A stretch of 64,000 nucleotides of DNA from Lingula anatina (Eukaryota > Animalia > Brachiopoda). Position 1 is the first letter of the stretch. Each line of letters opens with the position of its first letter. Below are positions 21,420 through 64,000 of the stretch, one piece after another. The position numbers and the translations under genes are program-made. Under the pieces are notes generated by a model. That model searched no databases. It saw only the letters and a program-made list of their open reading frames with translations, and was not told the DNA's origin. The DNA lies in contig CM120642.1 of the NCBI GenBank assembly GCA_051362555.1, positions 21,886,001-21,950,000 on the forward strand, given 5' to 3'.

Positions 21420-21421
21420 CT

Positions 21422-25411: not shown

Positions 25412-25440
25412 CTGCAACATAAAACACTGTTATAATGATT

Positions 25441-25530: not shown

Positions 25531-25622
25531 GCGAAAGTTGAATGCAAGTTATGTGTCCTGGAGATGGGAACAGGGTCTGATAGCAATGACTCTGCCAAGA
25601 CACTTTTCTGTTTGACATTTGA

Positions 25623-28102: not shown

Positions 28103-28334
28103 AAATGCATCCTTACTGCTGAGAATCTATTCTAGATACATGTAAAATCAGCTTACAGTGATTTATTATATTCCAAAACAATGTGTTTCATAAAAACAAT
28201 ACTATATTACATTTACACCCACTTGGCTCCGTCTAACTTCTCCAGCTTGTGCAGGATAAACAGATTAAATATAAACATATCTTCTCTTAGAGTGAAAGAT
28301 GTCAACTATTTGGCAAATCCCAAACTGTACTCAC

Positions 28335-28437
28335 CCTGAGTAATGGGGTCACTTTCTGTGTCTCCTGGGAAACTGGGTCCACTATGAATGTTACATCATA
28401 GGCTGGTTCCTAAGGTTTAGCTGGGATTTTTAACACA
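28335..28437 (-). pseudogene. UGGT: UGGT exon (VLKIPAKP*EPAYDVTFIVDPVSQETQKVTPLLR)
   Basis: Donor gtgagt is intact. The acceptor reads ttcat instead of ttcag. In-frame TAG. Confidence 0.88.
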
Positions 28438-29079
28438 ATGAAGATGTAGGTATTTTAAACAGTCAGTAAAGTACTTATAATTCAACCAGTACATTTTCAC
28501 AGACACTCAGAATTGCCATTATGGTATCAATACCCTGGAAAATACTGAGAGTTACATCAATAACAAAATCCAGTTCTTTTTCCAGAAAAACAATGTCACG
28601 TAAAACAACAAATTGTTAATGACCTGTCAATAATTCTTTTCAATATGCAGCATAATGACTTCAAAGGGTTTCATTCTCCATCCAGCTCCTGAACTTCAGG
28701 ATTAAAAAGGAGTAATTGATGCTTTTTTTAATACTTATTTGTGAATCATATCATATTTCAACTTTTTTTTCTTACTTTTAAATCTCTTTGTCTATGTAAA
28801 ATTTTATTTCATGATGTAATAGTTCAATCAGAAAAATCTACATCATTAAGAAAATGGGAAGATATCCCATTTAACTCAGCAGTGAGTAAACTGACATAGC
28901 TGTAAATGGACTGGCACAAAGTACATACCAATCCCCTGTTCACTGGCTACTTGGCATGTTTCAAGGATAGGTTGTTCATTTTGTGGCTAATTCCAAACAT
29001 AAGTTACAACAATGCAAAAATGCAGTGACACGTCCAAAGGAAGGGTTATTTCCCAGTTTATTTAGTATGACACATCTTA

Positions 29080-42099: not shown

Positions 42100-42450
42100 G
42101 CATTAGTGGGCTTGATTTGATCTTAAAGTGCAATTTAAGATGACAAATAGTCTTACGTAATCTTAAAACATGAGTAAAACCATTTCTAGTCTGACAGCCA
42201 ATTAAGTTGTCTGCCCTTACACATTCTCCTATTGTGAGCAGAGGTGTCCTCTATTGTGAGGGGAGGTATCCCCCATTGTGAGGGGATGAAACTGCTTGAC
42301 CACTTAAGTAGATATCAGATCATTTTTGACCTTAAAAGCAGATTCAGTCCATTTTAAGACTACTATTAAGATTAAGATCGTGTAAGATCACCTGTGAACT
42401 TAAATTGCACTTTAAGACCAATTCTAGCCCACTAATGAATTGGTACACCA
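42100..42450. mobile_element. ~350-bp MITE with ~40-bp TIRs
   Basis: CATTAGTGGGCTTGATTTGATCTTAAAGTGCAATTTAAG pairs with CTTAAATTGCACTTTAAGACCAATTCTAGCCCACTAATG. A second copy starts at ~63826 and runs off the window. Confidence 0.75.
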
Positions 42451-43212
42451 ATGTTCTAATCTGACAAGCTATTGTATCTCTTGAAACTGACAAAAAGGGC
42501 ATTCTGCTACCTATAAAAATTTATCCTGACCATTTGCATGATTTAATGATTTTGTTCTTTTTAAATATTCATTACAAAATGTCAACATACAATCTCCTAC
42601 CTACAATATAAATTGTACAGTTATTCCATCTACACCTGGTCTTGTTTGCTTTAGTTTCTTTAATCATAATTATTGTGAAGTTCAAACTCTAGGCACTTCA
42701 TTCAATGCAAAGCCTGTCCTCTTCATAAGTGACATGTAGCTTCAGTTGCAAGATCTTATAATGATGAGTATCTTGCTGACATATTTCCATTAAATAATTC
42801 ACAACAATTGATGCATCTGACTGTGTTGTGTTTGGATGTGCTAGGTGGAATGTCCTTTTGAAAACATTATAATAAAAGGGAAAGTTCCCCTGTTGTAGAC
42901 TAATATTGCACACCAGCAGTATTTATAAAACTATAACAAAAAATATCTTCATAAAGATCAGTTTGAAATCCTGTATATTTGCTGCACTAGGTCCATAAAA
43001 ATTAGTCTTCCTATCATGTGAAGACATTCTTCACTGATGCAGTGGGTCTGCCTTCTAAGAAACTTATCTAATTTGCTGTTTAATCTTGTTGCAAACACAC
43101 ACATTCCTAAACTGCCACAACACTAATTATTCCAGGCTCACTAAGTGGCAATGACGGCCACAGGCACTGACTGTATCTCAAGATACATTCCAGAACACTC
43201 TATGATATTTAC

Positions 43213-43306
43213 CAAATGTCTAACAGCACTGCAGAGGTGAGCTCTTCCAGCAGGTGAGGAAAGATTAGCCACCACCCAAATCGTAATAGGGTGCTGTCTG
43301 TCTCCT
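43213..43306 (-). pseudogene. UGGT: UGGT exon (GDRQHPITIWVVANLSSPAGRAHLCSAVRHL)
   Basis: ttttcag|...TTG|gtaaat. Resembles UGGT1 RPVTFWIVGDFDSPSGRQLLYDAIKH. Confidence 0.85.
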
Positions 43307-43570
43307 CTGAAAATTAAAAGAACAGAGTACATGAACAGTAGCAGTACAAACACAGTTTCCCTACCTTGACATTTCATATATACCATGCTAGCAGCTAGTG
43401 ATGTGGTCAGCTCTTTGTCGGTCATATCAGTATATATGCCGGCTTTGTTCACGTCAATCAAACCTGAAATTGTGCCATGTAAACATATTTCAAACAATCT
43501 TTGTAATATATACTGTACTTGTAACTGTACTGTATACTGTACTGAAGAAAATCAGTTCATTCTAGCAATT

Positions 43571-43767
43571 CGGGAAGTAGCCTTTGGTAGAGTACCTGAA
43601 ATAACTCATTAAAAACGTCATTAATAACATATTAAAGAAATAATAATTATATTCCATGTCAAGAGAAAGATTTGTAGAGTCTAACAATACCAAATTTATG
43701 AAAATCGGGCCAAAATTGGTCGAGTTATTAACAATTAAATAGGGACCCGTAAAACCGACTATTACCC
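43571..43767. mobile_element. 197-bp insertion in the left arm only, AATT (or CAATT) TSD, imperfect GGG(A/T)A(G/A)TAG TIR
   Basis: The right arm shows the empty site CTAGCAATTACCTCT. The left arm has CTAGCAATT-[insert]-AATTACCTCT. Confidence 0.8.
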
Positions 43768-44319
43768 AATTACCTCTATAGATCTATCACCGGACAGAAA
43801 TTCGACCACGAACTCATACAGAATCGCACAATCACGCAAAAAAGCAGAGCAATAGACTTGTGAAAATCATTCGCAAATAATAAACACGTATGCTATTTAC
43901 CATGATATTCAACATGCACTATCATCGTGTCGTCTGAGAATATTATGCACCGGAAACGCATCTGCGCAGACTCGGACTCCTTCTTGAGGAGAGTCGATGT
44001 AAACAAACAGTCGGGTAAACAGAAATCCCCCACCCCATTAATACTAGAAGCTCTAATTCCCATTGATTTGTCAAGGTCAACCCCCTCCTAGATTTTGAAA
44101 CAATTGGCCGCACTTACACCATTTATCTGCACCAATATATTGACACCGCCAACGGTCTGGCATTAAAGAATAAAGTATAAACTATGCCGCATACCGAAGA
44201 CAATACCGGTTCTTACTTATGAACCTGGACTAATCTCAACGCTTTACACTCACCGAAATTGATAGATGTGATTGGGGGGGGGGGGGGGGTAGGGGGGGTA
44301 GGGGGGGGGGAAGAAAACA

Positions 44320-47300
44320 GAACGCTCCCCCTCGGATTTGAACCCGGGGACTCTTGCACACCGGGGGGGCTACTCTACCAACTGAGCTAGCCAACCAAAG
44401 CTAACTCGACCACAAGGGATAACCGATCTTGACATCTTTAATTGACTGCCCTAGTGTGATAGTAGAGCTGGACCAATCGAGGCACTTTCGACACACTGCT
44501 TACCATGGTTCCAACAAATTCCAGCATTTTTAAATTACTTTCAAAGGACTAGAGCCGATTTTGATAGCTTGGACTTTCCGATTGTGGTAGTTGAGCTGGA
44601 CCAATCACTGAGCTGCTAAAAAAAGTCAACTCGAACCCGGGGTCTCTTGTACACCGTGCGGGTGCTCTACCAACTGAGCTACCCGGCCAGGACTAACCTC
44701 CAGCAGCCACCACAAGGGCTAAAGCCGATCTTGACTTTCCAAGTGTGGTAGTAGAGCTGGACCAATTGCGACCCTTTCAACACACTGCTTACCATGGTTC
44801 CGACAAATTCCATTATTTTTAAATGACTTTCAAAGGACTAGAGCCAATTTTCATAGCTAAAACTTTTCGATTGTGGTAGTTGCGCTGGACCAATCGCTGG
44901 GCTGCGTGAAAAGTCCAGGCTCCCCCTGGGATTCGAACCCGGGGACTCTTGCACACCGTGCGGGTGCTCTACCAACTGAGCTACACAGCCAAGGCCAACC
45001 CTGCATGTCACCACAAGGGCTAAAGGCGATCTTGACGTCATCGACATTCCGAGTGTGGTGGTAGAGCTGGACCAATCACAACGCTTTCGACACACCGCTT
45101 ACCATGGTTCCGACAAATCCCAGTATTTTTAAAGTACTTTCAAAGGACTAGAGCCGATTTTGATAGCTATGACTTTCTGATTGTGGTAGTTGAGCTAGAC
45201 CAATCGCTGGGCTGCGAGAAAAGTCCAGGCTCCCCCTGGGATTCGAACCCGAGGACTCTTGCACAAAGTGCTGGTGCTCTACCAACTGAGCTACCCAGCC
45301 AGGACCAACATCCAGCAGCCACCACAAGGGCTAAAGCCGGTCTTGACATCTTCGACTTTCCGAGTGTGGTAGTAGAGCTAGACCAATGGCAACGCTTTCG
45401 ACACACCGCTTACCATGGTTCCAACAAATTCCAGTATTTTTAAAGTACTTTCAAAGGACTAGAGCCGATTTTGATAGCTATGACTTTCTGATTGTGGTAG
45501 TTGAGCTAGACCAATCGCTGGGCTGTGAGAAAAGTCCGGCCCCCCTGGGATTCGAACCTGAGGACTCTTGCACAAAGTGCTGGTGCTCTACCAACTGAGC
45601 TACACAGCCAAGGCCAACCCTGCATGTCACCACAAGGGCTAAAGGCGATCTTGACGTCATCGACTTTCCGAGTGTGGTGGTAGAGCTGGACCAATCACAA
45701 CGCTTTCGACACACCGCTTACCATGGTTCCAACAAATTCCAGTATTTTTAAAGTACTTTCAAAGGACTTGAGCCGATTTTGATAGCTTGGACTTTTCGAT
45801 TGTGGTAGTTGAGCTGGACCAATCGCAACATTTTCGAAACACCGCTTACCATGGTTCCAACAAATTCCAGTATTTTTAAAGTACTTTCAAAGGACTAGAG
45901 CCGATTTTGATAGCTATGACTTTCTGATTGTGGTAGTTGAGCTAGACCAATCGCTGGGCTGCGAGAAAAGTCCAGGCTCCCCCTGGGATTCGAACCCGGG
46001 GAATCTTGCACAAAGTGCGGGTGCTCTACCAACTGAGCTACCCAGGCAAGGCCAACCTTACAAACTACCACAGCCACTAGAGCCGATCTTGATATCATCG
46101 CCCTTCAGAGTGTGGTAGTAGAGCTGGACCAATCGCGACGCATTCGACACACCGCTTACCATGGTTCCAACAAATTCCAGTATTTTTAAAGTACTTTCAA
46201 AGGACTAGAGCCGATTTTGATAGCTATGACTTTCTGATTGTGGTAGTTGAGCTAGACCAATCGCTGGGCTGTGAGAAAAGTCCAGGCTCCCCCTGGGATT
46301 CGAACCCGGGGACTCTTGCACAAAGTGCGGGTGCTCTACCAACTGAGCTACCCAGGCAAGGCCAACCCTGCATGTCACCACAAGGGCTAAAGCCGATCTT
46401 GACGTCATCGACTTTCCGAGTGTGGTGGTAGAGCTGGACCAATCACAACGCTTTCGACACACCGCTTACCATGGTTCCGACAAATTCCAGTATTTTTAAA
46501 GTACTTTCAAAGGACTTGAGCCGATTTTGATAGCTTGGACTTTTCGATTGTGGTAGTTGAGCTGGACCAATCGCAACGTTTTCGAAACACCGCTTACCAT
46601 GGTTCCAACAAATTCCAATATTTTTAAAGTACTTTCAAAGGACTAGAGCCGATTTTGATAGCTATAACTTTCTGATTGTGGTAGTTGAGCTAGACCAATC
46701 GCTGGGCTGTGAGAAAAGTCCAGGCTCCCCCTGGGATTCGAACCCGGGGACTCTTGCACAAAGTGCAGGTGCTCTACCAACTGAGCTACACAGCCAAGGC
46801 CAACCCTGCATGTCACCACAAGGGCTAAAGCCGATCTTGACGTCATCGACTTCCCAAGTGTGGTAGTAGAGCTGGACCAATCGCGACGCTTTCGACACAC
46901 CGCTTACCATGGTTCCAACAAATTCCAGTATTTTTAAAGTACTTTCAAAGGACTAGAGCCGATTTTGATAGCTATGACTTTCTGATTGTGGTAGTTGAGC
47001 TAGACCAATCGCTGGGCTGCGAGAAAAGTCCAGGCTCCCCCTGGGATTCGAACCCGAGGACTCTTGCACAAAGTGCGGGTGCTCTACCAACTGAGCTACA
47101 CAGCCAAGGCCAACCCTGCATGTCACCACAAGGGCTAAAGCCGATCTTGACGTCATCGACTTTCCGAGTGTGGTGGTAGAGGTGGACCAATCACAACACT
47201 TTCGACACACCGCTTACCATGGTTCCGACAAATTCCAGTATTTTTAAAGTACTTTCAAAGGACTTGAGCCGATTTTGATAGCTTGGACTTTTCGATTGTG

Positions 47301-50300
47301 GTAGTTGAGCTGGACCAATCGCAACGTTTTCGAAACACCGCTTACCATGATTCCAACAAATTCCAATATTTTTAAAGTACTTTCAAAGGACTAGAGCCGA
47401 TTTTGATAGCTATGACTTTCTGATTGTGGTAGTTGAGCTAGACCAATCGCTGGGCTGTGAGAAAAGTCCAGGCTCCCCCTGGGATTCGAACCCGGGGACT
47501 CTTGCACAAAGTGCAGGTGCTCTACCAACTGAGCTACACAGCCAAGGCCAACCCTGCACCACAAGGGCTAAAGCCGATCTTGACGTCATTGACTTTCCGA
47601 GTGTGGTAGTAGAGCTGGACCAATCGCGACGCTTTCGACACACCGCTTACCATGGTTCCAACAAATTCCAGTATTTTTAAAGTACTTTCAAAGGACTAGA
47701 ACCGATTTTGATAGCTATGACTTTCTGATTGTGGTAGTTGAGCTAGACCAATCGCTGGGCTGCGAGAAAAGTCCAGGCTCCCCCTGGGATTCGAACCCGA
47801 GGACTCTTGCACAAAGTGCGGGTGCTCTACCAACTGAGCTACACAGCCAAGGCCAACCCTGCATGTCACCACAAGGGCTAAAGCCGATCTTGACGTCATC
47901 GACTTTCCGAGTGTGGTGGTAGAGCTGGACCAATCACAACGCATTCGACACACCGCTTACCATGGTTCCAACAAATTCCAGTATTTTTAAAGTACTTTCA
48001 AAGGACTAGAGCCAATTTTGATAGCTATGACTTTCTGATTGTGGTAGTTGAGCTAGACCAATCGCTGGGCTGTGAGAAAAGTCCAGGCTCCCCCTGGGAT
48101 TCGAACCCGGGGACTCTTGCACAAAGTGCGGGTGCTCTACCAACTGAGCTACCCAGGCAAGGCCAACCCTGCATGTCACCACAAGGGCTAAAGCCGATCT
48201 TGACGTCATCGACTTTCCGAGTGTGGTGGTAGAGCTGGACCAATCACAACACTTTCGACACACCGCTTACCATGGTTCCGACAAATTCCAGTATTTTTAA
48301 AGTACTTTCAAAGGACTTGAGCCGATTTTGATAGCTTGGACTTTTCGATTGTGGTAGTTGAGCTGGACCAATCGCAACGTTTTCGAAACACCGCTTACCA
48401 TGGTTCCAACAAATTCCAATATTTTTAAAGTACTTTCAAAGGACTAGAGCCGATTTTGATAGCTATAACTTTCTGATTGTGGTAGTTGAGCTAGCCCAAT
48501 CGCTGGGCTGTGAGAAAAGTCCAGGCTCCCCCTGGGATTCGAACCCGGGGACTCTTGCACAAAGTGCAGGTGCTCTACCAACTGAGCTACACAGCCAAGG
48601 CCAACCCTGCATGTCACCACAAGGGCTAAAGCCGATCTTGACGTCATCGACTTCCCAAGTGTGGTAGTAGAGCTGGACCAATCGCGACGCTTTCGACACA
48701 CCGCTTACCATGGTTCCAACAAATTCCAGTATTTTTAAAGTACTTTCAAAGGACTAGAGCCGATTTTGATAGCTATGACTTTCTGATTGTGGTAGTTGAG
48801 CTAGACCAATCGCTGGGCTGCGAGAAAAGTCCAGGCTCCCCCTGGGATTCGAACCCGAGGACTCTTGCACAAAGTGCGGGTGCTCTACCAACTGAGCTAC
48901 ACAGCCAAGGCCAACCCTGCATGTCACCACAAGGGCTAAAGCCGATCTTGACGTCATCGACTTTCCGAGTGTGGTGGTAGAGCTGGACCAATCACAACGC
49001 TTTCGACACACCGCTTACCATGGTTCCAACAAATTCCAGTATTTTTAAAGTACTTTCAAAGGACTAGAGCCGATTTTGATAGCTATGACTTTCTGATTGT
49101 GGTAGTTGAGCTAAACCAATCGCTGGGCTGTGAGAAAAGTCCAGGCTCCCCCTGGGATTCGAACCCGGGGACTCTTGCACAAAGTGCGGGTGCTCTACCA
49201 ACTGAGCTACCCAGGCAAGGCCAACCCTGCATGTCACCACAAGGGCTAAAGCCGATCTTGACGTCATCGACTTTCCGAGTGTGGTGGTAGAGCTGGACCA
49301 ATCAAAACGCTTTCGACACACCGCTTACCATGGTTCCAACAAATTCCAGTATTTTTAAAGTACTTTCAAAGGACTAGAGCCGATTTTGATAGCTATGACT
49401 TTCTGATTGTGGTAGTTGAGCTAGACCAATCGCTGGGCTGTGAGAAAAGTCCAGGCTCCCCCTGGGATTCGAACCCGGGGACTCTTGCACAAAGTGCGGG
49501 TGCTCTACCAACTGAGCTACCCAGGCAAGGCCAACCCTGCATGTCACCACAAGGGCTAAAGCCGATCTTGACGTCATCGACTTTCCGAGTGTGGTGGTAG
49601 AGCTGGACCAATCACAACGCTTTCGACACACCGCTTACCATGGTTCCGACAAATTCCAGTATTTTTAAAGTACTTTCAAAGGACTTGAGCCGATTTTGAT
49701 AGCTTGGACTTTTCGATTGTGGTAGTTGAGCTGGACCAATCGCAACGTTTTCGAAACACCGCTTACCATGGTTCCAACAAATTCCAATATTTTTAAAGTA
49801 CTTTCAAAGGACTAGAGCCGATTTTGATAGCTATGACTTTCTGATTGTGGTAGTTGAGCTAGACCAATCGCTGGGCTGTGAGAAAAGTCCAGGCTCCCCC
49901 TGGGATTCGAACCCGGGGACTCTTGCACAAAGTGCGGGTGCTCTACCAACTGAGCTACACAGCCAAGGCCAACCCTGCATGTCACCACAAGGGCTAAAGC
50001 CGATCTTGACGTCATCGACTTCCCAAGTGTGGTGGTAGAGCTGGACCAATCACAACGCTTTCGACACACCGCTTACCATGGTTCCAACAAATTCCAGTAT
50101 TTTTAAAGTACTTTCAAAGGACTAGAGCCGATTTTGATAGCTATGACTTTCTGATTGTGGTAGTTGAGCTAGACCAATCGCTGGGCTGTGAGAAAAGTCC
50201 AGGCTCCCCCTGGGATTCGAACCCGAGGACTCTTGCACAAAGTGCGGGTGCTCTACCAACTGAGCTACCCAGGCAAGGCCAACCTTGCAAACTACCACAG

Positions 50301-50795
50301 CCACTAGAGCCGATCTTGATATCATCGCCTTTTCGAGTGTGATAGTAGAGCTGGACCAATCGCGACGCTTTCGACACACTGCTTACAATGGTTCCAACAA
50401 ATTCCAGTATTTTTTAATTACTTTCAAAGGACTTGAGCCGATTTTGATAGATTGGACTTTCCGATTGTGGTAGTTGAGCTGGACCAATCGCTGGGCTGCG
50501 GGAAAAGTCCAGGCTCCCCCTTGGATTCGAACCCAGAGACTCTTGCACACCGTACGGCCGCTGTACCAACTGAGCTACCCAGCCAGGACCAACCTCCAGC
50601 AGCCACCACAAGGGCTAAAGCCGGTCTTGACATCTTCGACTTTCCGAGTGTGGTAGTAGAGCTAGGCCAATGGCAACGCTTTCGACACACCGCTTACCAT
50701 GGTTCCAACAAATTCCAGTACTTTTAAATTACTTTGAAAGGACTTGAGCCGATTTTGATAGCTTGGACTTTCGATTGTGGTAGCTGAGCTGGACC
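44320..50795 (-). repeat. Left-arm tandem array: ~310-bp units with tRNA-like cassette (~19 copies) plus 128-bp cassette-less units; 1,801-bp higher-order repeat
   Basis: ORF offsets of 310 and 438 (=310+128). 46205/48006, 46643/48444 and 46953/48754 all differ by 1801. Confidence 0.95.
46722..46795 (-). ncRNA. Representative left-arm tRNA-like Pol III cassette (not a canonical tRNA)
   Basis: GGCTGTG-TAGCTCAGTTGGTAGAGC-A-CCTGCACTTTGTGCAAG-AGTCC-CCGGGTTCGAATCCCAG-GGGGAGCCT, then GGACTTTT. Intact D arm/A box and T loop/B box. Acceptor and anticodon stems mismatched. Confidence 0.7.
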
Positions 50796-53700
50796 CCTTC
50801 TTTCTTCATCTCTAAAGCCCTTCCTTTCCTTTCTTTTTTCATCTCTGAATCCCTTCCTTTCCTTTCTTTTCACGTCTCTTAAGCCCTTTTTTTTTCATCT
50901 CTAAAGCCCTTCCTTTATTTTCTTTTTTCATCTCTATGCCCTTCTTTTTATTTCTTTTTTGCTCTCTAAAGCCCTTCTTTCTTCATCTCTTAAGCCCTTC
51001 CTTTCCTTTCTTTTTTGCTCTCTTAAGCTCTTCCTTTCCTTTCTTTTTTCATCTCTGATACCCTTCCTTTCCTTTCTTTTTGCACTCTTAAGCCCTTCTT
51101 TTTCATCTCTAAAGCCCTTCTTTTTCTTTCTTTTTTGCTCTCTACAGCCCTTCCTTTCCTTTCTTTTTTCATCTCTTAAGCCCTTCTTTTTTCATCTCTG
51201 AAGCCCTTCCTTTCCTTTCTTTTTTGCTCTCTTAAGCCCTTCCTTTCCTTTCTTTTTGCACTCTTAAGCCCTTCTTTTTCATCTCTAAAGCCCTTTTTTT
51301 TCTTTCTTTTTTGCTCTCTTAAGCCCTTCCTTTCCTTTCTTTTTTGCTCTCTTAAGCCCTTCCTTTCCTTTCTTTTTTGCTCTCTTAAGCCCTTATTTTT
51401 TCATCTCTGAAGCCCTTCTTTCCTTTCTTTTCACGTCTCTTAAGCCCTTCTTTTTTCATCTCTAAAGCCCTTCCTTTCCTTTCTTTTCACGTCTCTTAAG
51501 CCCTTCTTTTTATTTCTTTTTTGCTCTCTAAAGCCCTTCTTTCTTCATCTCTTAAGCCCTTCCTTTCCTTTCTTTTTTGCTCTCTTAAGCCCTTCCTTTC
51601 CTTTCTTTTTTGCTCTCTTAAGCCCTTATTTTTTCATCTCTGAAGCCCTTCCTTTCCTTTCTTTTCACGTCTCTTAAGCCCTTCTTTTTTCATCTCTAAA
51701 GCCCTTCCTTTATTTTCTTTTTTCATCTCTATGCCCTTCTTTTTATTTCTTTTTTGCTCTCTAAAGCCCTTCTTTCTTCATCTCTAAAGCCCTTCCTTTC
51801 CTTTCTTTTTTGCTCTCTTAAGCTCTTCCTTTCCTTACTTTTTTCATCTCTGAAGCCCTTCCTTTCCTTTATTTTTGCACTCTTAAGCCCTTCTTTTTCA
51901 TCTCTAAAGCCCTTCTTTTTCTTTCTTTTTTGCTCTCTACAGCCCTTCCTTTCCTTTCTTTTTTCATCTCTTAAGCCCTTCTTTTTTCATCTCTGAAGCC
52001 CTTCCTTTCCTTTCTTTTTTGCTCTCTTAAGCCCTTCCTTTCCTTTCTTTTTGCACTCTTAAGCCCTTCTTTTTCATCTCTAAAGCCCTTTTTTTTCTTT
52101 CTTTTTTGTTCTCTTAAGCCCTTCTTTTTCATCTCTAAAGCCCTTCTTTTTCTTTCTTTTTTGCTCTCTACAGCCCTTCCTTTCCTTTCTTTTTTCATCT
52201 CTTAAGCCCTTCTTTTTTCATCTCTGAAGCCCTTCCTTTCCTTTCTTTTTTGCTCTCTTAAGCCCTTCCTTTCCTTTCTTTTTTCGTCTCTGAAGCCCTT
52301 CCTTTCCTTTCTTTTTTGCTCTCTTAAGCCCTTATTTTTTCATCTCTGAAGCCCTTCCTTTCCTTTCTTTTCACGTCTCTTAAGCCCTTCTTTTTTCATC
52401 TCTAAAGCCCTTCCTTTATTTTCTTTTTTCATCTATATGCCCTTCTTTTTATTTCTTTTTTGCTCTCTAAAGCCCTTCTTTCTTCATCTCTAAAGCCCTT
52501 CCTTTCCTTTCTTTTTTGCTCTCTTAAGCTCTTCCTTTCCTTACTTTTTTCATCTCTGAAGCCCTTCCTTTCCTTTATTTTTGCACTCTTAAGCCCTTCT
52601 TTTTCATCTCTAAAGCCCTTTTTTTTCTTTCTTTTTTGTTCTCTTAAGCCCTTCTTTTTCATCTCTAAAGCCCTTCTTTTTCTTTCTTTTTTGCTCTCTA
52701 CAGCCCTTCCTTTCCTTTCTTTTTTCATCTCTTAAGCCCTTCTTTTTTCATCTCTGAAGCCCTTCCTTTCCTTTCTTTTTTGCTCTCTTAAGCCCTTCCT
52801 TTCCTTTCTTTTTGCACTCTTAAGCCCTTCTTTTTCATCTCTAAAGCCCTTTTTTTTCTTTCTTTTTTGTTCTCTTAAGCCCTTCTTTTTCATCTCTAAA
52901 GCCCTTCTTTTTCTTTCTTTTTTGCTCTCTACAGCCCTTCCTTTCCTTTCTTTTTTCATCTCTTAAGCCCTTCTTTTTTCATCTCTGAAGCCCTTCCTTT
53001 CCTTTCTTTTTTGCTCTCTTAAGCCCTTCCTTTCCTTTCTTTTTGCACTCTTAAGCCCTTCTTTTTCATCTCTAAAGCCCTTCTTTTTCTTTCTTTTTTG
53101 CTCTCTAAAGCCCTTCCTTTCCTTTCTTTTTTCATCTCTTAAGCCCTTCTTTTTTCATCTCTGAAGCCCTTCCTGTCCTTTCTTTTTTTGCTCTCTTAAG
53201 CCCTTCCTTTCCTTTCTTTTTTGCTCTCTTAAGCCCTTCTTTTTCATCTCTAAAGCCCTTTTTTTTCTTTCTTTTTTGCTCTCTTAAGCCCTTCCTTTCC
53301 TTTCTTTTTTGCTCTCTTAAGCCCTTCCTTTCCTTTCTTTTTTGCTCTCTTAAGCCCTTCCTTTCCTTTCTTTTTTGCTCTCTTAAGCCCTTCTTTTTTC
53401 ATCTCTTAAGCCCTTCCTTTCCTTTCTTTTTTGCTCTCTTAAGCCCTTCTTTTTTCATCTCTGAAGCCCTTCCTGTCCTTTCTTTTTTGCTCTCTTAAGC
53501 CCTTCCTTTCCTTTCTTTTTTGCTCTCTTAAGCCCTTCTTTTTTCATCTCTTAAGCCCTTCCTTTCCTTTCTTTTTTGCTCTCTTAAGCCCTTCTTTTTT
53601 CATCTCTGAAGCCCTTCCTGTCCTTTCTTTTTTGCTCTCTTAAGCCCTTCCTTTCCTTTCTTTTTTCATCTCTTAAGCCCTTCTTTTTTCATCTCTGAAG

Positions 53701-55494
53701 CCCTTCCTTTCCTTTCTTTTTTGCTCTCTTAAGCCCTTCCTTTCCTTTCTTTTTGCACTCTTAAGCCCTTCTTTTTCATCTCTAAAGCCCATCTTTTTCT
53801 TTCTTTTTTGCTCTCTAAAGCCCTTCCTTTCCTTTCTTTTTTCATCTCTGAAGCCCTTCCTTTCCTTTCTTTTTTCATCTCTAAAGCCCATCTTTTTCTT
53901 TCTTTTTTGCTCTCTAAAGCCCTTCCTTTCCTTTCTTTTTTCATCTCTGAAGCCCTTCCTTTCCTTTCTTTTTTCATCTCTGAAGCCCTTCCTTTCCTTT
54001 CTTTTTTCGTCTCTGAAGCCCTTCCTTTCCTTTCTTTTTTGCTCTCTTAGGCCCTTCTTTTTTCATCTCTGAAGCCCTTCCTTTCCTTTCTTTTCACGTC
54101 TCTTAAGCCCTTCTTTTTTCATCTCTAAAGCCCTTCCTTTTCTTTCTTTTTTGCTCTCTTAAGCCCTTCCTTTCATTTCTTTTCACGTCTCTTAAGCCCT
54201 TCTTTTTTCATCTCTAAAGCCCTTCCTTTATTTTCTTTTTTCATCTCTATGCCCTTTTTTTTATTTCTTTTTTGCTCTCTAAAGCCCTTCTTTCTTCATC
54301 TCTAAAGCCCTTCCTTTCCTTTCTTTTTTGCTCTCTTAAGCTCTTCCTTTCCTTTCTTTTTGCACTCTTAAGCCCTTCTTTTTCATCTCTAAAGCCCTTC
54401 TTTTTCTTTCTTTTTTGCTCTCTAAAGCCCTTCTTTTTCATCTCTAAAGCCCTTCTTTTTCTTTCTTTTTTGCTCTCTACAGCCCTTCCTTTCCTTTCTT
54501 TTTTATCTCTTAAGCCCTTCTTTCTTCATCTCTAAAGCCCTTCCTTTCCTTTCTTTTTTGCTCTCTTAAGCTCTTCCTTTCCTTTCTTTTTGCACTCTTA
54601 AGCCCTTCTTTTTCATCTCTAAAGCCCTTCTTTTTCTTTCTTTTTTGCTCTCTAAAGCCCTTCTTTTTCATCTCTAAAGCCCTTCTTTTTCTTTCTTTTT
54701 TGCTCTCTTAGGCCCTTCCTTTCCTTTCTTTTTTGCTCTCTTAAGCCCTTCTTTTTTCATCTCTGAAGCCCTTCCTGTCCTTTCTTTTTTGCTCTCTTAA
54801 GCCCTTCCTTTCCTTTCTTTTTTGCTCTCTTAAGCCCTTCTTTTTTCATCTCTTAAGCCCTTCCTTTCCTTTCTTTTTTGCTCTCTTAAGCCCTTCCTTT
54901 CCTTTCTTTTTTGCTCTCTTAAGCCCTTCCTTTCCTTTCTTTTTTGCTCTCTTAAGCCCTTCTTTTTTCATCTCTGAAGCCCTTCCTTTCCTTTCTTTTT
55001 TCATCTCTGAAGCCCTTCCTTTCCTTTCTTTTTTCATCTCTGAAGCCCTTCCTTTCCTTTCTTTTTTGCTCTCTAAAGCCCTTCTTTTTTGCTCTCTTAA
55101 GCCCTTCCTTTCCTTTCTTTTTTCATCTCTGAAGCCCTTCCTTTCCTTTCTTTTTTCATCTCTGAAGCCCTTCTTTTTTCATCTCTAAAGCCCTTCCTTT
55201 CCTTTCTTTTTTCATCTCTAAAGCCCTTCCTTTCCTTTCTTTTTGCTCTCTAAAGCCCTTCTTTTTTCATCTCTAAGGCCCTTCCTTTCTTTTCTTTTCT
55301 GCTCTTTTAAGCCCTTCCTTTTTTTTTTATTTCTCTTAAGCCCTTCCTTTCCTTTCTTTTTTCGTCTCTAAAGCCCTTCTTTTTCTTTCTTTTTTGCTCT
55401 CTAAAGCCCTTCTTTTTTGCTCTCTAAAGCCCTTCTTTTTTCATCTCTAAAGCCCTTATTTTTCATCTCTAAGGCCCTTCCTTTCTTTTCTTTT
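50796..55494. repeat. 4.7-kb polypyrimidine/polypurine satellite (AAGCCCTTCCTTTCCTTTCTTTTTTGCTCTCTT ~32 bp and AAGCCCTTCTTTTTTCATCTCT ~23 bp units)
   Basis: The plus strand is almost entirely C/T punctuated by AAG. Larger blocks recur at ~700-800 bp (ORFs 50959/51754/52460; 51971/52732). Confidence 0.97.
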
Positions 55495-58400
55495 GTCGGA
55501 ACCATGGTTAGCGGTCTGTCAAAAGCGTCGCAATTGGTCCAGCTATACTACCACACTCGGAAAGTCGAAGATGTCAAGATCAGCTCCAGTCCTTATGGTG
55601 GCTTGCAGGGTTGACATTGTCTGGGTAGCTCAGTTGGTAGTCTCCGGGTTCAAATCCCAGGGGGAACCTGGACTTTTCTCGCAGCCCAGCGATTGGTCCA
55701 GCTCAACAACCACAATCGGAAGTCCAAGCTATCAAAATCGGCTCTAGTCCTTTGAAACTAATATAAAAATACTGGAATTTGTCGGAACCATGGTTAGCGG
55801 TCTGTCGAAAGCGTCGCAATTGGTCCAGCTATACTACCACACTCGGAAAGTCGAAGATGTCAAGATCAGCTTCAGTCCTTATGGTGGCTTGCAGGGTTGA
55901 CCTTGGCTGGGTAGCTCAGTTGTTAGAGCAGCCACACTGGTGTGCAGGAGTCTCCGGGTTCAAATCCCAGAAGGAGCTTGGACTTTTTTCGCAGCCCAGC
56001 GATTGTTCAGCTCAACTACCACATTCGGAAAGTCCTTCGAAAGTACTTTAAAAATACTGGAATTTGTTGGAACCATGGTAAGAGGTGTGTCGAAAGCGTC
56101 GCAATTGGTCCAGCTATACTACCACACTCGGAAAGTCGAAGATGTCAAGATCAGCTCCAGTCCTTGTGGTGGCTTGCAGGGTTGACCTTGTCTGGGTAGC
56201 TCAGTTGGTAGAGCAGCCACACTGGTGTGCAGGTGTCTCCGGGTTCAAATCCCAGGGGGAGCTTGGACTTTTTTCGCAGCCCAGCGATTGGTCAGCTCAA
56301 CTACCACAATCAGAAATTCCAAGCTATCTAAATCGACTCTAGTCCTTTGAAAATACTTTAAAAATACTGGAATTTGTCGGAACCATGGTTAGCGGTCTGT
56401 CGAAAGCGTCGCAATTGGTCCAGCTCTACTACCATACTCGGAAAGTCGAAGATGTCAAGATCGGCTTTAGCCCTTGTGGTGGCTTACAGGGTTGACCTTG
56501 GCTGGGTAGCTCAGTTGGTAGAGCAGCCACACTGGTGTGCAGGAGTCTCCGGGTTCAAATCCCAGGGGGAGCTTGGACCTTTTTCGCAGCCCAGCGATTG
56601 TTCAGCTCAACTACCACATTCGGAAAGTCCAAGCTATCAAAATCGGCTCTAGTCCTTCGAAAGTACTTTAAAAATACTGGAATTTGTTGGAACCATGGTA
56701 AGAGGTGTGTCGAAAGCGTCGCAATTGGTCCAGCTATACTGCCACACTCGGAAAGTCGATGATGTCAAGATCGGCTTTAGCCCTTGTGGTGGCTTACAGG
56801 GTTGACCATGGCTGGGTAGCTCAGTTGGTAGAGCAGCCACACTGGTGTGCAGGTGTCTCCGGGTTCAAATCCCAGGGGGAGCTTGGACTTTTTTCGCAGC
56901 CCAGCGATTGGTCAGCTCAACTACCACAATCAGAAATTCCAAGCTATCTAAATCGACTCTAGTCCTTTGAAAATACTTTAAAAATACTGGAATTTGTCGG
57001 AACCATGGTTAGCGGTCTGTCGAAAGCGTCGCAATTGGTCCAGCTCTACTACCATACTCGGAAAGTCGAAGATGTCAAGATCGGCTTTAGCCCTTGTGGT
57101 GGCTTACAGGGTTGACCTTGGCTGGGTAGCTCAGTTGGTAGAGCAGCCACACTGGTGTGCAGGAGTCTCCGGGTTCAAATCCCAGGGGGAGCTTGGACCT
57201 TTTTCGCAGCCCAGCGATTGTTCAGCTCAACTACCACATTCGGAAAGTCCAGGCTATCAAAATCGGCTCTAGTCCTTCGAAAGTACTTTAAAAATACTGG
57301 AATTTGTTGGAACCATGGTAAGAGGTGTGTCGAAAGCGTCGCAATTGGTCCAGCTATACTGCCACACTCGGAAAGTCGATGATGTCAAGATCGGCTTTAG
57401 CCCTTGTGGTGGCTTACAGGGTTGACCATGGCTGGGTAGCTCAGTTGGTAGAGCAGCCACACTGGTGTGCAGGAGTCTCCGGGTTCAAATCCCAGGGGGA
57501 GCTTGGACTTTTTTCGCAGCCCAGCGATTGGTCAGCTCAACTACCACAATCAGAAATTCCAAGCTATCTAAATCGACTCTAGTCCTTTGAAAATACTTTA
57601 AAAATACTGGAATTTGTCGGAACCATGGTTAGCTCAACTACCACATTCGGAAAGTCCAAGCTATCAAAATCGGCTCTAGTCCTTCGAAAGTACTTTAAAA
57701 ATACTGGAATTTGTCGGAACCATGGTAAGAGGTGTGTCGAAAGCGTCGCAATTGGTCCAGCTATACTACCACACTCGGAAAGTCGAAGATGTCAAGATCA
57801 GCTCCAGTCCTTATGGTGGCTTGCAGGGTTGACATTGTCTGGTTAGCTCAGTTGGTAGAGCAGCCACACTGGTGTGCAGGAGTCTCCGGGTTCAAATCCC
57901 AGGGGGAACCTGGACTTTTCTCGCAGCCCAGCGATTGGTCCAGCTCAACTACCACAATCGTAAAGTCCAAGCTATCAAAATCGGCTCTAGTCCTTCGAAA
58001 GTACTTTAAAAATACTGGAATTTGTTGGAACCATGGTAAGAGGTGTGTCGAAAGCGTCGCAATTGGTCCAGCTATACTACCACACTCGGAAAGTCGAAGA
58101 TGTCAAGATCGGCTTTAGCCCTTGTGGTGGCTGCAGGATTGACCTTGGCTGGGTAGCTCAGTTGGTAGAGCAGCCACACTGGTGTGCAGGAGTCTCAGGG
58201 TTCAAATCCCAGGGGGAGCTTGGACTTTTTTCGCAGCCCAGCGATTGGTCAGCTCAACTACCACATTCGGAAAGTCCATGCTATCAAAATCGGCTCTAGT
58301 CCTTCGAAAGTACTTTAAAAATACTGGAATTTGTTGGAACCATGGTAAGAGGTGTGTCGAAAGCGTCGCAATTGGTCCAGCTATACTACCACACTCGGAA

Positions 58401-61400
58401 AGTCGAAGATGTCAAGATCAGCTCCAGTCCTTATGGTGGCTTGCAGGGTTGACATTGTCTGGTTAGCTCAGTTGGTAGAGCAGCCACACTGGTGTGCAGG
58501 AGTCTCCGGGTTCAAATCCCAGGGGGAACCTGGACTTTTCTCGCAGCCCAGCGATTGGTCCAGCTCAACTACCACAATCGTAAAGTCCAAGCTATCAAAA
58601 TCGGCTCTAGTCCTTCGAAAGTACTTTAAAAATACTGGAATTTGTTGGAACCATGGTAAGAGGTGTGTCGAAAGCGTCGCAATTGGTCCAGCTATACTAC
58701 CACACTCGGAAAGTCGAAGATGTCAAGATCGGCTTTAGCCCTTGTGGTGGCTGCAGGATTGACCTTGGCTGGGTAGCTCAGTTGGTAGAGCAGCCACACT
58801 GGTGTGCAGGAGTCTCAGGGTTCAAATCCCAGGGGGAGCTTGGACTTTTCGCAGCCCAGCGATTGGTCAGCTCAACTACCACATTCGGAAAGTCCATGCT
58901 ATCAAAATCGGCTCTAGTCCTTCGAAAGTACTTTAAAAATACTGGAATTTGTTGGAACCATGGTAAGAGGTGTGTCGAAAGCGTCGCAATTGGTCCAGCT
59001 ATACTGCCACACTCGGAAAGTCGATGATGTCAAGATCGGCTTTAGCCCTTGTGGTGGCTTACAGGGTTGACCATGGCTGGGTAGCTCAGTTGGTAGAGCA
59101 GCCACACTGGTGTGCAGGAGTCTCCGGGTTCAAATCCCAGGGGGAGCTTGGACTTTTTTCGCAGCCCAGCGATTGGTCAGCTCAACTACCACAATCAGAA
59201 ATTCCAAGCTATCTAAATCGACTCTAGTCCTTTGAAAATACTTTAAAAATACTGGAATTTGTCGGAACCATGGTTAGCTCAACTACCACATTCGGAAAGT
59301 CCAAGCTATCAAAATCGGCTCTAGTCCTTCGAAAGTACTTAAAAAATACTGGAATTTGTCGGAACCATGGTAAGAGGTGTGTCGAAAGCGTCGCAATTGG
59401 TCCAGCTATACTACCACACTCGGAAAGTCGAAGATGTCAAGATCAGCTCCAGTCCTTATGGTGGCTTGCAGGGTTGACATTGTCTGGTTAGCTCAGTTGG
59501 TAGAGCAGCCACACTGGTGTGCAGGAGTCTCCGGGTTCAAATCCCAGGGGGAACCTGGACTTTTCTCGCAGCCCAGCGATTGGTCCAGCTCAACTACCAC
59601 AATCGTAAAGTCCAAGCTATCAAAATCGGCTCTAGTCCTTCGAAAGTACTTTAAAAATACTGGAATTTGTTGGAACCATGGTAAGAGGTGTGTCGAAAGC
59701 GTCGCAATTGGTCCAGCTATACTACCACACTCGGAAAGTCGAAGATGTCAAGATCGGCTTTAGCCCTTGTGGTGGCTGCAGGATTGACCTTGGCTGGGTA
59801 GCTCAGTTGGTAGAGCAGCCACACTGGTGTGCAGGAGTCTCAGGGTTCAAATCCCAGGGGGAGCTTGGACTTTTTTCGCAGCCCAGCGATTGGTCAGCTC
59901 AACTACCACATTCGGAAAGTCCATGCTATCAAAATCGGCTCTAGTCCTTCGAAAGTACTTTAAAAATACTGGAATTTGTTGGAACCATGGTAAGAGGTGT
60001 GTCGAAAGCGTCGCAATTGGTCCAGCTATACTGCCACACTCGGAAAGTCGATGATGTCAAGATCGGCTTTAGCCCTTGTGGTGGCTTACAGGGTTGACCA
60101 TGGCTGGGTAGCTCAGTTGGTAGAGCAGCCACACTGGTGTGCAGGAGTCTCCGGGTTCAAATCCCAGGGGGAGCTTGGACTTTTTTCGCAGCCCAGCGAT
60201 TGGTCAGCTCAACTACCACAATCAGAAATTCCAAGCTATCTAAATCGACTCTAGTCCTTTGAAAATACTTTAAAAATACTGGAATTTGTCGGAACCATGG
60301 TTAGCTCAACTACCACATTCGGAAAGTCCAAGCTATCAAAATCGGCTCTAGTCCTTCGAAAGTACTTTAAAAATACTGGAATTTGTCGGAACCATGGTAA
60401 GAGGTGTGTCGAAAGCGTCGCAATTGGTCCAGCTATACTACCACACTCGGAAAGTCGAAGATGTCAAGATCAGCTCCAGTCCTTATGGTGGCTTGCAGGG
60501 TTGACATTGTCTGGTTAGCTCAGTTGGTAGAGCAGCCACACTGGTGTGCAGGAGTCTCCGGGTTCAAATCCCAGGGGGAACCTGGACTTTTCTCGCAGCC
60601 CAGCGATTGGTCCAGCTCAACTACCACAATCGTAAAGTCCAAGCTATCAAAATCGGCTCTAGTCCTTCGAAAGTACTTTAAAAATACTGGAATTTGTTGG
60701 AACCATGGTAAGAGGTGTGTCGAAAGCGTCGCAATTGGTCCAGCTATACTACCACACTCGGAAAGTCGAAGATGTCAAGATCGGCTTTAGCCCTTGTGGT
60801 GGCTGCAGGATTGACCTTGGCTGGGTAGCTCAGTTGGTAGAGCAGCCACACTGGTGTGCAGGAGTCTCAGGGTTCAAATCCCAGGGGGAGCTTGGACTTT
60901 TTTCGCAGCCCAGCGATTGGTCAGCTCAACTACCACATTCGGAAAGTCCATGCTATCAAAATCGGCTCTAGTCCTTCGAAAGTACTTTAAAAATACTGGA
61001 ATTTGTTGGAACCATGGTAAGAGGTGTGTCGAAAGCGTCGCAATTGGTCCAGCTATACTGCCACACTCGGAAAGTCGATGATGTCAAGATCGGCTTTAGC
61101 CCTTGTGGTGGCTTACAGGGTTGACCATGGCTGGGTAGCTCAGTTGGTAGAGCAGCCACACTGGTGTGCAGAATTCTCCGTGTTCAAATCCCAGGGGGAG
61201 CCTGGACTTTTCTCGCAGCCCAGCGATTGGTCCAGCTCAACTACCACAATCGGAAAGTCCAAGCTATCACAATCGGCTCTAGTTCTTTGAAACTAATATA
61301 AAAATACTGGAATTTGTTAGAACCATGGTAAGAGGTGTTTCGAAAGCGTCGCGAATGGTCCAGCTCAACTACCACAATCGGAAAGTCCAAGCTATCAAAA

Positions 61401-61960
61401 TCTGCTCTAGTTCTTCGAAAGTACTTTAAAAATACTGGAATTTGTTGGAACCATGGTAAGCGGTGTGTCGAAAGCGTCGCAATTGGTCCAGCTATACTAC
61501 CACACTCGGAAAATCGATGATGTCAAGATCGGCTTAAGCCCTTGTGGTGGCTGCTGGGGGTTGGTCCTGGCTCTGTAGCTCGGTTGGTAGAGTACCCGCA
61601 CTGTGTGCAAGAGTTTCCTGGTTAGAATCCCATGGGGAGCCTGGACTTTTCTCGCAGCCTAGCGATTGGTCCAGCTCAACTACCACAATCGAAAAGTCCA
61701 AGCTATCAAAATCGGCTCTAGTCCTTTGAAAGTAATTTAAAAATACTGGAATTTGTTGGAACCATGGAAAGCAGTGTGTTGAAAGCGTCGCGATTGGTCC
61801 AGCTCTACTATCACACTTGGAAAGTCAATTAAAGATGTCAAGATCGGCTTTAGCCCTTCCGGTGACATCCAGAGTTAGCCTTGGTTGGGTAGCTCAGTTG
61901 GTAGAGCACCCACACCGGTGTGCAAGAGTCTCCTGGTTCAAATCCCAGTGGGATCATTCA
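55495..61960 (+). repeat. Right-arm tandem array: ~310-bp units with tRNA-like cassette (~20 copies); 620-bp and 1,027-bp higher-order repeats
   Basis: ORF offsets of 620 (56374/56994, 57732/58352) and 1027 (58970/59997/61024, 59377/60404). Confidence 0.95.
56500..56574 (+). ncRNA. Representative right-arm tRNA-like Pol III cassette
   Basis: GGCTGGG-TAGCTCAGTTGGTAGAGC-A-GCCACACTGGTGTGCAGG-AGTCT-CCGGGTTCAAATCCCAG-GGGGAGCTT, followed by GGAC and a T run. Confidence 0.7.
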
Positions 61961-62880
61961 GTTTCCTTCCCCCCCCCCCCCCCCACCCACCCACCACCAC
62001 CACCACCACCACCAATCACATCTATTAATTTCGGTGAGTGTAAAGCGTTGAGATCGGTCCAGGTTCATAAGTAATAACCGGTATTGTCGTCGATATGCGG
62101 CATAGTTTAAACTTTATTCTTTAATGCCAGACCGGTGGCTGTGTCAACATATTGGTACAGATAAATAGTGTAAGCGCGGCCAATTGTTTCAAATTCTAGG
62201 AGGGGGTTGACCTTGACAAATCAATGGGAATTAGAGCTTCTAGCATTAATGGGGTGGGGGATTTCTGTTTACCCGACTGTTTGTTTACATCGACTCTCCT
62301 CAAGAAGGAGTCCGAGTCTGCGCAGATGCGTTTCCGGTGCATTTCCAATATTTTCAGACGACACGAAAATGCTGCATGTTGATTATCATGGTAAGTAGCA
62401 TACGTGTTTATTATTTGCGAAAGATTTTCACAAGTCTATTGCTCTGCTTATTTGCGTGATTGTGCGATTGTGTGTGAGTTCGTGGTCGAATTTCTGTCCG
62501 GTGATAGAGGCCGCTATATAAGAGATTTTCGCCTCAAAATTTTCCGTTTTTAGATCTACAGAGGTAATTGCTAGAATGAACTGATTTTCTTCAGTACAAG
62601 TACAGTATATATTACAAAGATTGTTTGAAATATGTTTATATGTCACAATTTCAGGTTTGATTGACGGGAACAAAGTCGGCATATACACTGATATGATCGA
62701 CAAAGAGCTGACCGCATCACTAGCTGCTAGCATGGTACATGTATAAATGAAACGCCAAGGTAGGGAAACTGTGTTTGTACTGCTACTGTTCATGACTTTT
62801 CATATATTACACAATCATAATTGTTCCATGTTGTTTTTCCCCATCTTCCCATAGCTGTTGGTATCCTATTAGACTTGCAC

Positions 62881-63100
62881 TTTTATTATGTACATACATG
62901 GTGTTTACTTTTGCCATCATCTTGTTGCTGTTGTCATCACGATGCACTTTCAGAGATGACATGATAAGTGGAAAACCATTTGACCCATTGTCTTCAAATT
63001 TACAGGACTGATGAATATTAGGAAAATATAGATCCAGTTCAAAAAACGGTTTGATTGGACCAGTTTTAAATTAAGTTTAATTTTTTCAGTTTGTATAATA
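62881..63100 (+). mobile_element. Old diverged HINE fragment, opposite orientation
   Basis: TTATGTACA...GCCATCA...GCACTTTC...GATAAGTGGAAAACCATTTGAC...CTGATGAATATT matches the reverse complement of the HINE end and core. Confidence 0.6.
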
Positions 63101-63556
63101 CTACATGTATATGTAATTTAGATGACACATTAAGGGTATTGTAAGCCTTTAGTGTCATCCAGACACCAAAAAGGAGTTTTTTCCTGCATCTAATTACTCA
63201 ACTATTTGTATCTTTTGTGTGTAAATCTCTTCTAGTAGATGTACATAATCATGGTAGATAACATTATTTAACATTTTGTTGGATCAGTGGGAGCATTAAA
63301 GTGGAATTACCTGGCTAACGAAGTAAAACCGTGGAAGTGATTTGCTTTTTGGTTTTACTTTGTTGTATTTTTGATATGCTGTATGGTATGTGATGGTAAA
63401 CTAGAATCAATGTTAATTCTCCAAAGGATTGGCAGGCCCATAGCCGGGGGGGGGGGGGGGGGGGTCAAAAGAACCACCCGTTTTGTCAGGAAGAGGTCCA
63501 TTTTGGAAAAAATTTTACCTAGGTACACATAAGTTTCATTGAAGTTTCATAAGTTT

Positions 63557-64000
63557 CATTGAATGAAGTGCCTAGAGTTTGAACTTCAAAATAATTATGT
63601 TTTATTTAAGATTGAAGAAACTAAAGCAAACAAGACCAGGTGTAGATGCAATAACTGTACGATTTATATTGTAGGTAGGAGATTGTATGTTGACATTTTG
63701 TAATGAATATTTAAAAAGAACAAAATCATTAAATGATGCAAATGGTCAGGATAAATTTTTATAGGTAGCAGAATGCCCTTTTTGTCAGTTTCAAGAGACA
63801 CAATAGCCAGACAGATTAGAACATTGGTGTACCAATTCACTAGTGGGCTAGATTTGGTCTTAAAGTGCAATTCAAGTTCACAAGTGATCTTACACTATCT
63901 TAATCATTATAGCAGTAGTCTTAAAATGGACTGAATCTGCTTTTAAGGTAAAAAATGATCTGACATCTATTTAAGTGGTCAAGCAGTTTCATCCCCTCAC
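63557..64000. repeat. Inverted copy of 42277-42707 (MITE plus adjacent flank), continuing past the window end
   Basis: CTCTAGGCACTTCATTCAATG, GCATTCTGCTACCTATAAAAATTTATCCTGACC and GTGAGGGGATGAAACTGCTTGACC all recur as reverse complements. Confidence 0.92.

Follow-up and report, generated by a model that had tools for sequence, protein, structure and literature searches.

Introduction

Helenus (TRIMp3) is a miniature long terminal repeat (LTR) retrotransposon that carries a tRNA-like sequence in its LTR (Kojima 2024, PMC10886601). At least three Helenus families are described from the brachiopod Lingula anatina, with LTRs of 127-132 bp, internal regions of 58-60 bp and 4-bp duplications. Bivalve Helenus elements are reported to have tRNA-Thr-like heads, and tandem arrays are mentioned for one fish family, LTR-11_DR (PMC10886601). 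We analysed a stretch of 64,000 nt from L. anatina (assembly GCA_051362555.1, contig CM120642.1, positions 21,886,001 to 21,950,000), hereafter the window, in which two inverted arrays of tRNA-like segments, the heads, flank an unrelated satellite. The 310-bp repeat of these arrays probably descends from a Helenus-type element that multiplied and was inverted together with a piece of a UGGT1-like gene.

Tandem arrays are also known from Cassandra, a terminal-repeat retrotransposon in miniature (TRIM) with 5S RNA in its LTRs, which forms long arrays (Kalendar et al. 2020, PMC7215508). A tRNA-like RNA polymerase III (Pol III) promoter is found in several tandem families of amphibians, among them PolIII/TAN of Cynops, which can be transcribed in vitro, Rana/polIII, Hy/polIII and Xenopus OAX/satellite I (Vassetzky et al. 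2023, PMC10702118).

The tRNA-like heads

A pattern search of the whole window for TAGCTCAGTTGGTAGAGC, with at most two mismatches, returned 38 matches where none was expected, half of them on the minus strand (19; 44372-50577) and half on the plus strand (19; 55912-61907). When all copies were printed with their flanks, a 39th head was found at 55626, its anticodon region internally deleted. An earlier note, made from the letters of the window alone, had described about 39 tRNA-like units, and search and inspection together bear out this number. A profile of the repeat unit matched 50 pieces, all within the two arrays, and had no match in the rest of the 64-kb window. The arrays and one example segment are arranged as follows.

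44322..50795, minus strand: left array, 19 heads, 310-bp units and 438-bp variants (from the profile and periods)
55492..61963, plus strand: right array, 20 heads (including the deleted one at 55626), 310-bp units and 407-bp variants (from the profile and periods)
56475..56597, plus strand: example of the LTR-like segment of one unit (hand comparison with the Helenus consensus)
starting at 56475, plus strand: TGTGGTGGCT, resembling an LTR 5' end
from 56500, plus strand: tRNA-like head of this segment
56507-56518 and 56552-56562, plus strand: its A box and B box, respectively
from 56580, plus strand: its T run, followed by CGCAGCCCAGCG

The Pol III elements reported in the earlier note were largely intact. 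The A-box pattern was present in 37 of the 39 heads, a B box at tRNA spacing in 35, and a run of at least four T residues in 38. The deleted head retains the letters of the B box, closer to the A box. The T runs are T4 to T7, and in 36 of the 39 heads they start 77-81 nt from tRNA position 1. With A box, B box and T run in place, Pol III transcription into RNAs of ~80 nt would be possible.

The heads are tRNA-derived but are no longer tRNAs, as the earlier note had proposed. ARAGORN found no tRNA among the heads of the window. The Rfam tRNA model scored at most 27.3 bits, against a cutoff of 29, in three of the 39 heads and over model positions 8-63 only, and no Rfam family reached its gathering score anywhere in the window. 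As also noted earlier, the acceptor stem pairs at GGCT/AGCC only, and in the aligned loop a C stands in place of U33 in all variants, including the outer copies. The earlier note had further described an anticodon loop zipped into a longer hairpin. This holds for the left arm, whose folds contain GCAC-UUU-GUGC; the minimum-energy folds of the right arm have an anticodon stem of only 3 bp with a 4-nt loop. The 5-bp stem proposed for the right arm was not seen, because such a stem would leave a 2-nt loop. By eye, the pairing register of the anticodon hairpin differs between the arms, and no covariation is seen. Minimum-energy folds of seven copies revealed no stable common structure (z of -0.16 to -1.77 against mononucleotide shuffles). 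The outer heads and the published Helenus-2_LAn consensus both have GGT at the anticodon place. An ancestry of the heads from tRNA-Thr is plausible but unproven; tRNA-Lys and tRNA-Cys were considered as other candidates.

The repeat unit and its higher-order variants

The tandem unit is 310 bp long, with 88-96% matches between copies, and the head makes up about 85 nt of it. After the T run, the unit continues with box X (65 bp), spacer S (63 bp), a box X' that is alike to X at 54 of 66 positions, and a 22-bp linker. The 438-bp variants of the left arm contain one additional 128-bp X-S monomer, and the 407-bp variants of the right arm an additional 97-bp piece that is part of such a monomer. 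This gives a base period of 128 bp. Long and short units follow one another in a different order in each arm, the variants are arm-specific, and the outermost copies are the most divergent.

On their periodicity, arm-specific homogenisation and divergent edges, the arrays are satellite DNA with higher-order repeats. The copies run head-to-tail, with the T run 77-81 nt past the start of the head, the rest of the unit on a 128-bp period, and no tail. This layout does not fit a tRNA-derived short interspersed element (SINE), whose head would be followed by a body, a 3' part derived from a long interspersed element (LINE) and a simple-repeat tail, in dispersed copies with target duplications; the earlier note had likewise seen neither SINE body nor tail. 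Its description of the heads as self-contained cassettes fails: the head is only ~85 nt of a 310-bp unit whose remainder is kept at least as well, and the sequence upstream of it resembles an LTR 5' end. The 310-bp higher-order repeat, the inverted symmetry that continues into the flanks and the presence of the family elsewhere in the genome had been overlooked. The observed/expected ratio of CpG, 0.45 for the window as a whole, reaches 0.63-0.68 in the arrays.

Comparison of the unit with Helenus

The unit was compared with the Helenus consensus by eye and hand alignment, and by counts of two short motifs. In the hand alignment of the copy at 50577 with the LTR of Helenus-2_LAn, about 90 of 129 columns match (~70%); up to the T run, about 83 of 111 do. 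Upstream of GGTAGCTC, 21 of 31 bases match Helenus-2_LAn without gaps and in register; the binomial probability of at least 21 such matches is 7e-7 with p=0.25 and 2e-4 with p=0.35. The start of the Helenus-2_LAn LTR, TGTAGTGGCTG, differs by one base from TGTGGTGGCTG of the unit. By eye, about three quarters of the columns agree between the tRNA-like parts, including GCACGGT.TGC at the anticodon place, and TTTTC past the head followed by a C-rich stretch is found in both.

The motif counts point the same way. With one mismatch allowed, the LTR-5'-end motif gave 10 matches against 1.19 expected, all in the arrays. Eight matches to TGTGGTGGCTG stand 29-31 nt before GGTAGCTC, a distance of 31 nt in the consensus; in these eight copies the head thus lies 29-31 nt inside the LTR-5'-end-like start. 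The primer-site-like motif ATGGT(0-3)AGCGGTG gave 22 matches against 0.01 expected, again all in the arrays. Because the units copy one another, the counts are non-independent, and each amounts to one match per family.

49009..49021, minus strand: example of the primer-binding-site-like ATGGTAAGCGGTG in spacer S, of which there are 22 exact copies, in the arrays only

ATGGTAAGCGGTG is two bases shorter than the motif of the Helenus consensus. X' ends in TCGGCTTTAGCCCT before TGTGG and in this resembles the internal region of Helenus, which ends in TTTGGCATTTAGGGGGGAGGAG before TGTAG, except that the purine tract is gone. By eye, the two outermost copies end in GTTTTCTTCCCCCC..., a longer C run and AATCACATCTA, and resemble the LTR 3' end GTTTTCTCCCCCCAAATCGCTACA; it is in these two copies only that an LTR 3' end can be recognised.

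44263..44321, minus strand: outer end of the left array, a C run (on the unit strand) past the last head, with AATCACATCTA
61964..62014, plus strand: outer end of the right array, a C run and (CCA)n, then AATCACATCTA
62032..62161, plus strand: decayed extra unit, with a primer-site-like piece, X' box, linker and head start

The decayed unit in the right flank gave a local alignment score of 44, whereas 200 shuffles had a mean of 22.7 and a largest score of 38. Its counterpart in the left arm aligns at about 44225-44255 (minus strand). In this outermost, and oldest, unit the primer-site-like piece comes immediately after the LTR-like part, as it does in a TRIM, and X', the linker and a head remnant come next.

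The inverted duplication

The two arrays are the arms of an inverted duplication that extends at least from 42278 to the end of the window. The flank at 61974-64000 is the reverse of 44310-42278, with blocks that are 91.8-92.9% identical and one non-homologous stretch, and the match continues to the window edge. As the earlier note observed, the heads of both arrays point away from the core. They do so because the array, together with its flank, was duplicated in inverted orientation.

42278..44310: left flank, inverted copy of 61974-64000
61974..64000: right flank, inverted copy of the left flank
50796..55491: core, a T/C-rich satellite with periods of 23, 33, 56 and 89 bp

The repeat unit of the core satellite is about TTCTTTTTTCATCTCTTAAGCCC, with higher periods of 33, 56 and 89 bp, and is unrelated to the arms. 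GC skew falls to -0.68 and AT skew to -0.69 in the core. It is strand-asymmetric and, therefore, not palindromic. The core joins the arms at differing positions of the unit: profile column 102 on the left and 186 on the right.

Variation within the unit

To compare the boxes with the rest of the unit, variation was scored as the number of distinct minor letters per column over all 50 aligned pieces. The A box had two such events in 12 columns, and none of 213 12-column windows in the rest of the unit was as low. By contrast, the six events in the 11 columns of the B box were ordinary (Poisson P 0.37 against the rest). The comparison foreseen in the earlier note thus came out in favour of a nominally under-varied A box (P ~0.01) and not of the B box. 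Across the head as a whole there were 1.17 variant events per column, compared with 0.73 in the rest of the unit.

Consensuses of the two arms were built from 12 left and 13 right units of 300-315 bp; the other 12 of the 37 complete units were excluded for length. They differ at 24 of 316 columns (7.6%), similar to the flanks (about 7%). The differences fall at 9 of 85 columns of the head and at 15 of 229 elsewhere; the A box has 0 of 12, the B box 1 of 11 and the anticodon arm 5 of 19. Overall, the head has drifted at least as fast as its surroundings. The A box alone hints at constraint, among copies that share ancestry.

Abundance of the family and RNA reads

Contigs from four DNA runs of three studies were collected at a likeness of at least 80% to 61560-62400. 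In each run, 103-165 contigs matched the unit. An exact contig over the right flank (62023-62322) had a depth of ~72 in run X1, 25 in X2 and 66 in X4. Summed over boxes X and spacers S, depth in run X1 was 10,000-28,500, roughly 140-400 single-copy equivalents, compared with about 90 X-like boxes in the window; read depth does not equal copy number. Many variant contigs and loose ends show other arrangements. In the same run, the flank at 62023-62400 had roughly 6-8 single-copy equivalents and several variant contigs, some of them of the left-arm type. The edge of the array and its flank thus form a low-copy genomic repeat themselves. Together, these data indicate several loci for the family and its flank, and the presence of the right-arm flank in independent samples.

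RNA reads were sampled from four runs, at about 6% of each run, and such libraries would not contain 80-nt RNAs. Run X14 contained six reads (three pairs) on one right-arm unit, and X15 two partial reads. The reads come from other copies, as they are 90-95% alike to the unit, and the later X14 pairs extend past the T run and on into X and S. No reads came from the poly-A run X11 or the oligo-dT run X17, both of which the tool marked as no test.

The UGGT1-like gene and other features of the window

The left flank is part of a truncated, minus-strand UGGT1-like gene, whose eleven exon matches run from 43476 down to 18855 and cover residues 689-1516 of a 1526-residue protein; each is 62-97% identical to L. 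anatina UGGT1. The closest named protein is the same L. anatina UGGT1 (88% over the open frame of the exon).

43213..43476, minus strand: first UGGT1-like exon present, residues 689-757 of P0121

The distance from this exon to the array is ~850 bp, and part of the exon recurs as a mirrored copy in the right arm at 62651-62758 (plus strand). The N-terminal half of the gene was not found in the window. The same exon (43213-43476) also contains the start of a 382-residue Lingula model, P0122.

Several repeats lie within the gene. Its introns contain five short arrays (2-3.3 copies) of a ~160-bp repeat between 25952 and 35933. An open reading frame (ORF) over one ~160-bp array, 26058-26621 (minus strand), has a weak Pfam match to Cybc1/Eros (E 5.9e-6; 26.7 bits, cutoff 27). 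A GT-rich 20-bp minisatellite, AGTGTAGTGTAGTGCAGTGC, occupies 23545-25293 between UGGT1-like exons with ~89 copies. Two arrays of a 32-bp repeat, CTTCATCTCTACACTGGAATACAACATACACA, lie at 19751-21286 with 14 and 11 copies, ~730 bp apart.

Elsewhere, positions 1-14500 hold A/C-rich satellites with periods of 49, 96, 147, 350 and 384 bp. A direct duplication repeats 565-2533 at 3710-5678, ~3145 bp apart. At 11125-12108 (plus strand) lies a LINE reverse-transcriptase fragment (RVT_1, E 1.2e-29); among named proteins its nearest relatives are LINE proteins of teleosts (40-60% identity). The window yielded no telomere-type repeats. A Pfam search of the 14 long ORFs of the window and 36 ORFs of the flanks detected no transposase or integrase; the matches were the reverse-transcriptase fragment, UGGT domains and weak hits only.

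Discussion

The locus is most likely a satellite derived from Helenus, and it stands out by its higher-order structure and by the inverted pairing of its arrays. The heads are probably decaying LTR-derived repeats and not a new class of small-RNA gene. We propose that a Helenus-like element, with its LTR, primer-binding site and internal part, inserted here, and that the tRNA-derived segment of its LTR would have been the element's own Pol III promoter. Units of LTR and internal part then probably multiplied by unequal recombination, as in Cassandra (PMC7215508) and as noted for LTR-11_DR. The internal part would have acquired the 128-bp sub-repeat, giving the higher-order units of 310, 438 and 407 bp. 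The array and its flank, with an exon of the truncated UGGT1-like gene, would next have been duplicated in inverted orientation. The unrelated 23-bp satellite now occupies the centre, and the arms would afterwards have been homogenised separately. The units are probably no longer mobile, since they have lost the polypurine tract and their primer site is changed.

A number of observations weigh against this descent. The likeness was judged by eye and by two short motifs, and an identity of ~70% amounts at best to likeness at the family level. Shared tRNA ancestry explains part of the likeness; the support from outside the tRNA-like part consists of the 31 upstream bases, the 13-base primer-site-like motif and the C-rich LTR end. 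The polypurine tract before TGTGG is absent and, by eye, GGCTTTAGCCCT stands where the consensus has GGCATTTAGGGGGGAGGAG. In the 310-bp unit, the primer-site-like piece is ~100 nt from the LTR-like end, and the 190 bp between LTR-like parts are three times the published internal length. The inner ends of the arrays, at which a target-site duplication would be expected, are cut by the core. Finally, of all 12-column stretches of the unit, the A box varies least (Poisson P 0.011 against non-CpG columns), as would be expected under selection on a promoter.

This last point bears on the suggestion of the earlier note that the heads are small non-coding RNA genes or TFIIIC insulators; that selection maintains them in such a role appears quite improbable to us. 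Boxes at tRNA spacing with a T run in nearly all copies would fit such a role, as would the nominally under-varied A box, and the promoters of Helenus have been argued from their conservation to be probably functional (Kojima 2024, PMC10886601). However, the B box is conserved to an ordinary degree, the head varies more than the rest of the unit, and the differences between the arm consensuses in the head match those of the flanks. Predicted folds vary from copy to copy and are no stabler than shuffles, the anticodon hairpins lack covariation between the arms, and the X14 read pairs, derived from other copies, include later ones that read across the T run. The head as a whole shows no excess conservation, and the outward orientation results from the inverted duplication. 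A slim chance, slimmer again, attaches to a domesticated LTR, with the 39 outward promoters as live Pol III/TFIIIC sites under selection, at which the invariance of the A box would hint, that serve as a tDNA-like chromatin boundary or as a source of ~80-nt RNAs. If this were true, a functioning Pol III gene would form the repeat unit of this satellite, placed at the breakpoint of a duplicated gene.

A satellite grown from a tRNA pseudogene or from the head of a tRNA-derived SINE, with no LTR element involved, is unlikely, although it holds more promise than selected RNA genes. Tandem units of a few hundred base pairs with a tRNA-like promoter are known from the amphibian families, the satellites that squamates have derived from SINEs would be another parallel, and a tRNA-headed SINE, LinSINE1, has been reported from Lingula (PMC4824008). 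Such an origin leaves unaccounted for the likeness to Helenus-2_LAn, which runs in register for 31 bases upstream of the tRNA part, and the presence of a primer-site-like motif and a C-rich LTR-like end; moreover, the unit has no SINE body or tail (LinSINE1 was considered by its description only). A decaying cluster of once-functional tRNA genes, comparable to the tandem tRNA gene arrays known from other animals, is extremely unlikely: the D and T arms are well kept and three copies reach 27.3 bits, but no copy attains the Rfam cutoff or is called by ARAGORN, the acceptor stem is unpaired outside GGCT/AGCC and U33 is missing even from the oldest outer copies, and the upstream sequence resembles an LTR. 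As for the two-armed structure, a foldback-type transposon, or a larger mobile or segmentally duplicated unit, is very unlikely. Long inverted arms of tandem repeats around a non-palindromic centre would fit it, as would the roughly 6-8 single-copy equivalents of the flank at 62140-62342 in run X1. By contrast, the inverted homology passes the ends of the arrays and continues through the gene exon to the window edge, so that termini and target duplications cannot be defined, and no transposase domain was found in the 14 long window ORFs and 36 flank ORFs.

Descent from a Helenus-type element has consequences beyond this locus. It shows that a miniature LTR retrotransposon can yield arrays of convincing tRNA-like genes, which may mislead the annotation of tRNAs and non-coding RNAs. 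It also adds, from a brachiopod, a case in which a Helenus-type element became a higher-order satellite, in a large inverted pair beside a truncated copy of a gene. If the promoters are active, the locus would offer a natural array for studying the binding of Pol III and TFIIIC to repeats.

Comparison with known systems

The closest described element is Helenus-2_LAn, from the same host genus. The unit shares with it an LTR-like piece that begins with TGT.GTGGCTG and encloses a head with A box, B box and T run, as well as GCACGGT.TGC, a C-rich 3' end and a primer-site-like ATGGT..AGCGGTG. It differs in being only ~70% identical by hand alignment, in having lost the polypurine tract and in a primer site that is two bases short. 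Whereas the internal region of Helenus measures 58-60 bp, the unit has 190 bp with an internal 128-bp repeat, and in place of an LTR-internal-LTR element with 4-bp duplications there are 39 tandem copies in inverted arrays.

Cassandra resembles the locus: it is an LTR element, non-autonomous, whose LTR includes a Pol III gene-like segment with a terminator, and in its arrays the LTR serves as the unit and the internal domain as the spacer, so that a cluster of small-RNA genes is mimicked (PMC7215508). By contrast, Cassandra is a plant element, its segment derives from 5S RNA and not from a tRNA, its arrays have at least 12 copies, and its abstract mentions no inverted pair.

The amphibian families share tandem units of ~200-360 nt (longer in OAX) that contain tRNA-related sequence (PMC10702118). 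They differ in belonging to vertebrates and in having no LTR-element ancestry reported there; the likeness is one of description only. The SINE-derived satellites of squamates are likewise built from part of a Pol III-promoted retroelement in tandem at modest copy number (PMC10702118), but their sources are the SINEs Squam1-3, while the source here is most likely an LTR-type element. The large inverted symmetry has a parallel in Tribolium madens, where satellite arrays stand in macro-dyad symmetry; those are beetle satellites arranged at the megabase scale (PMC13081366).

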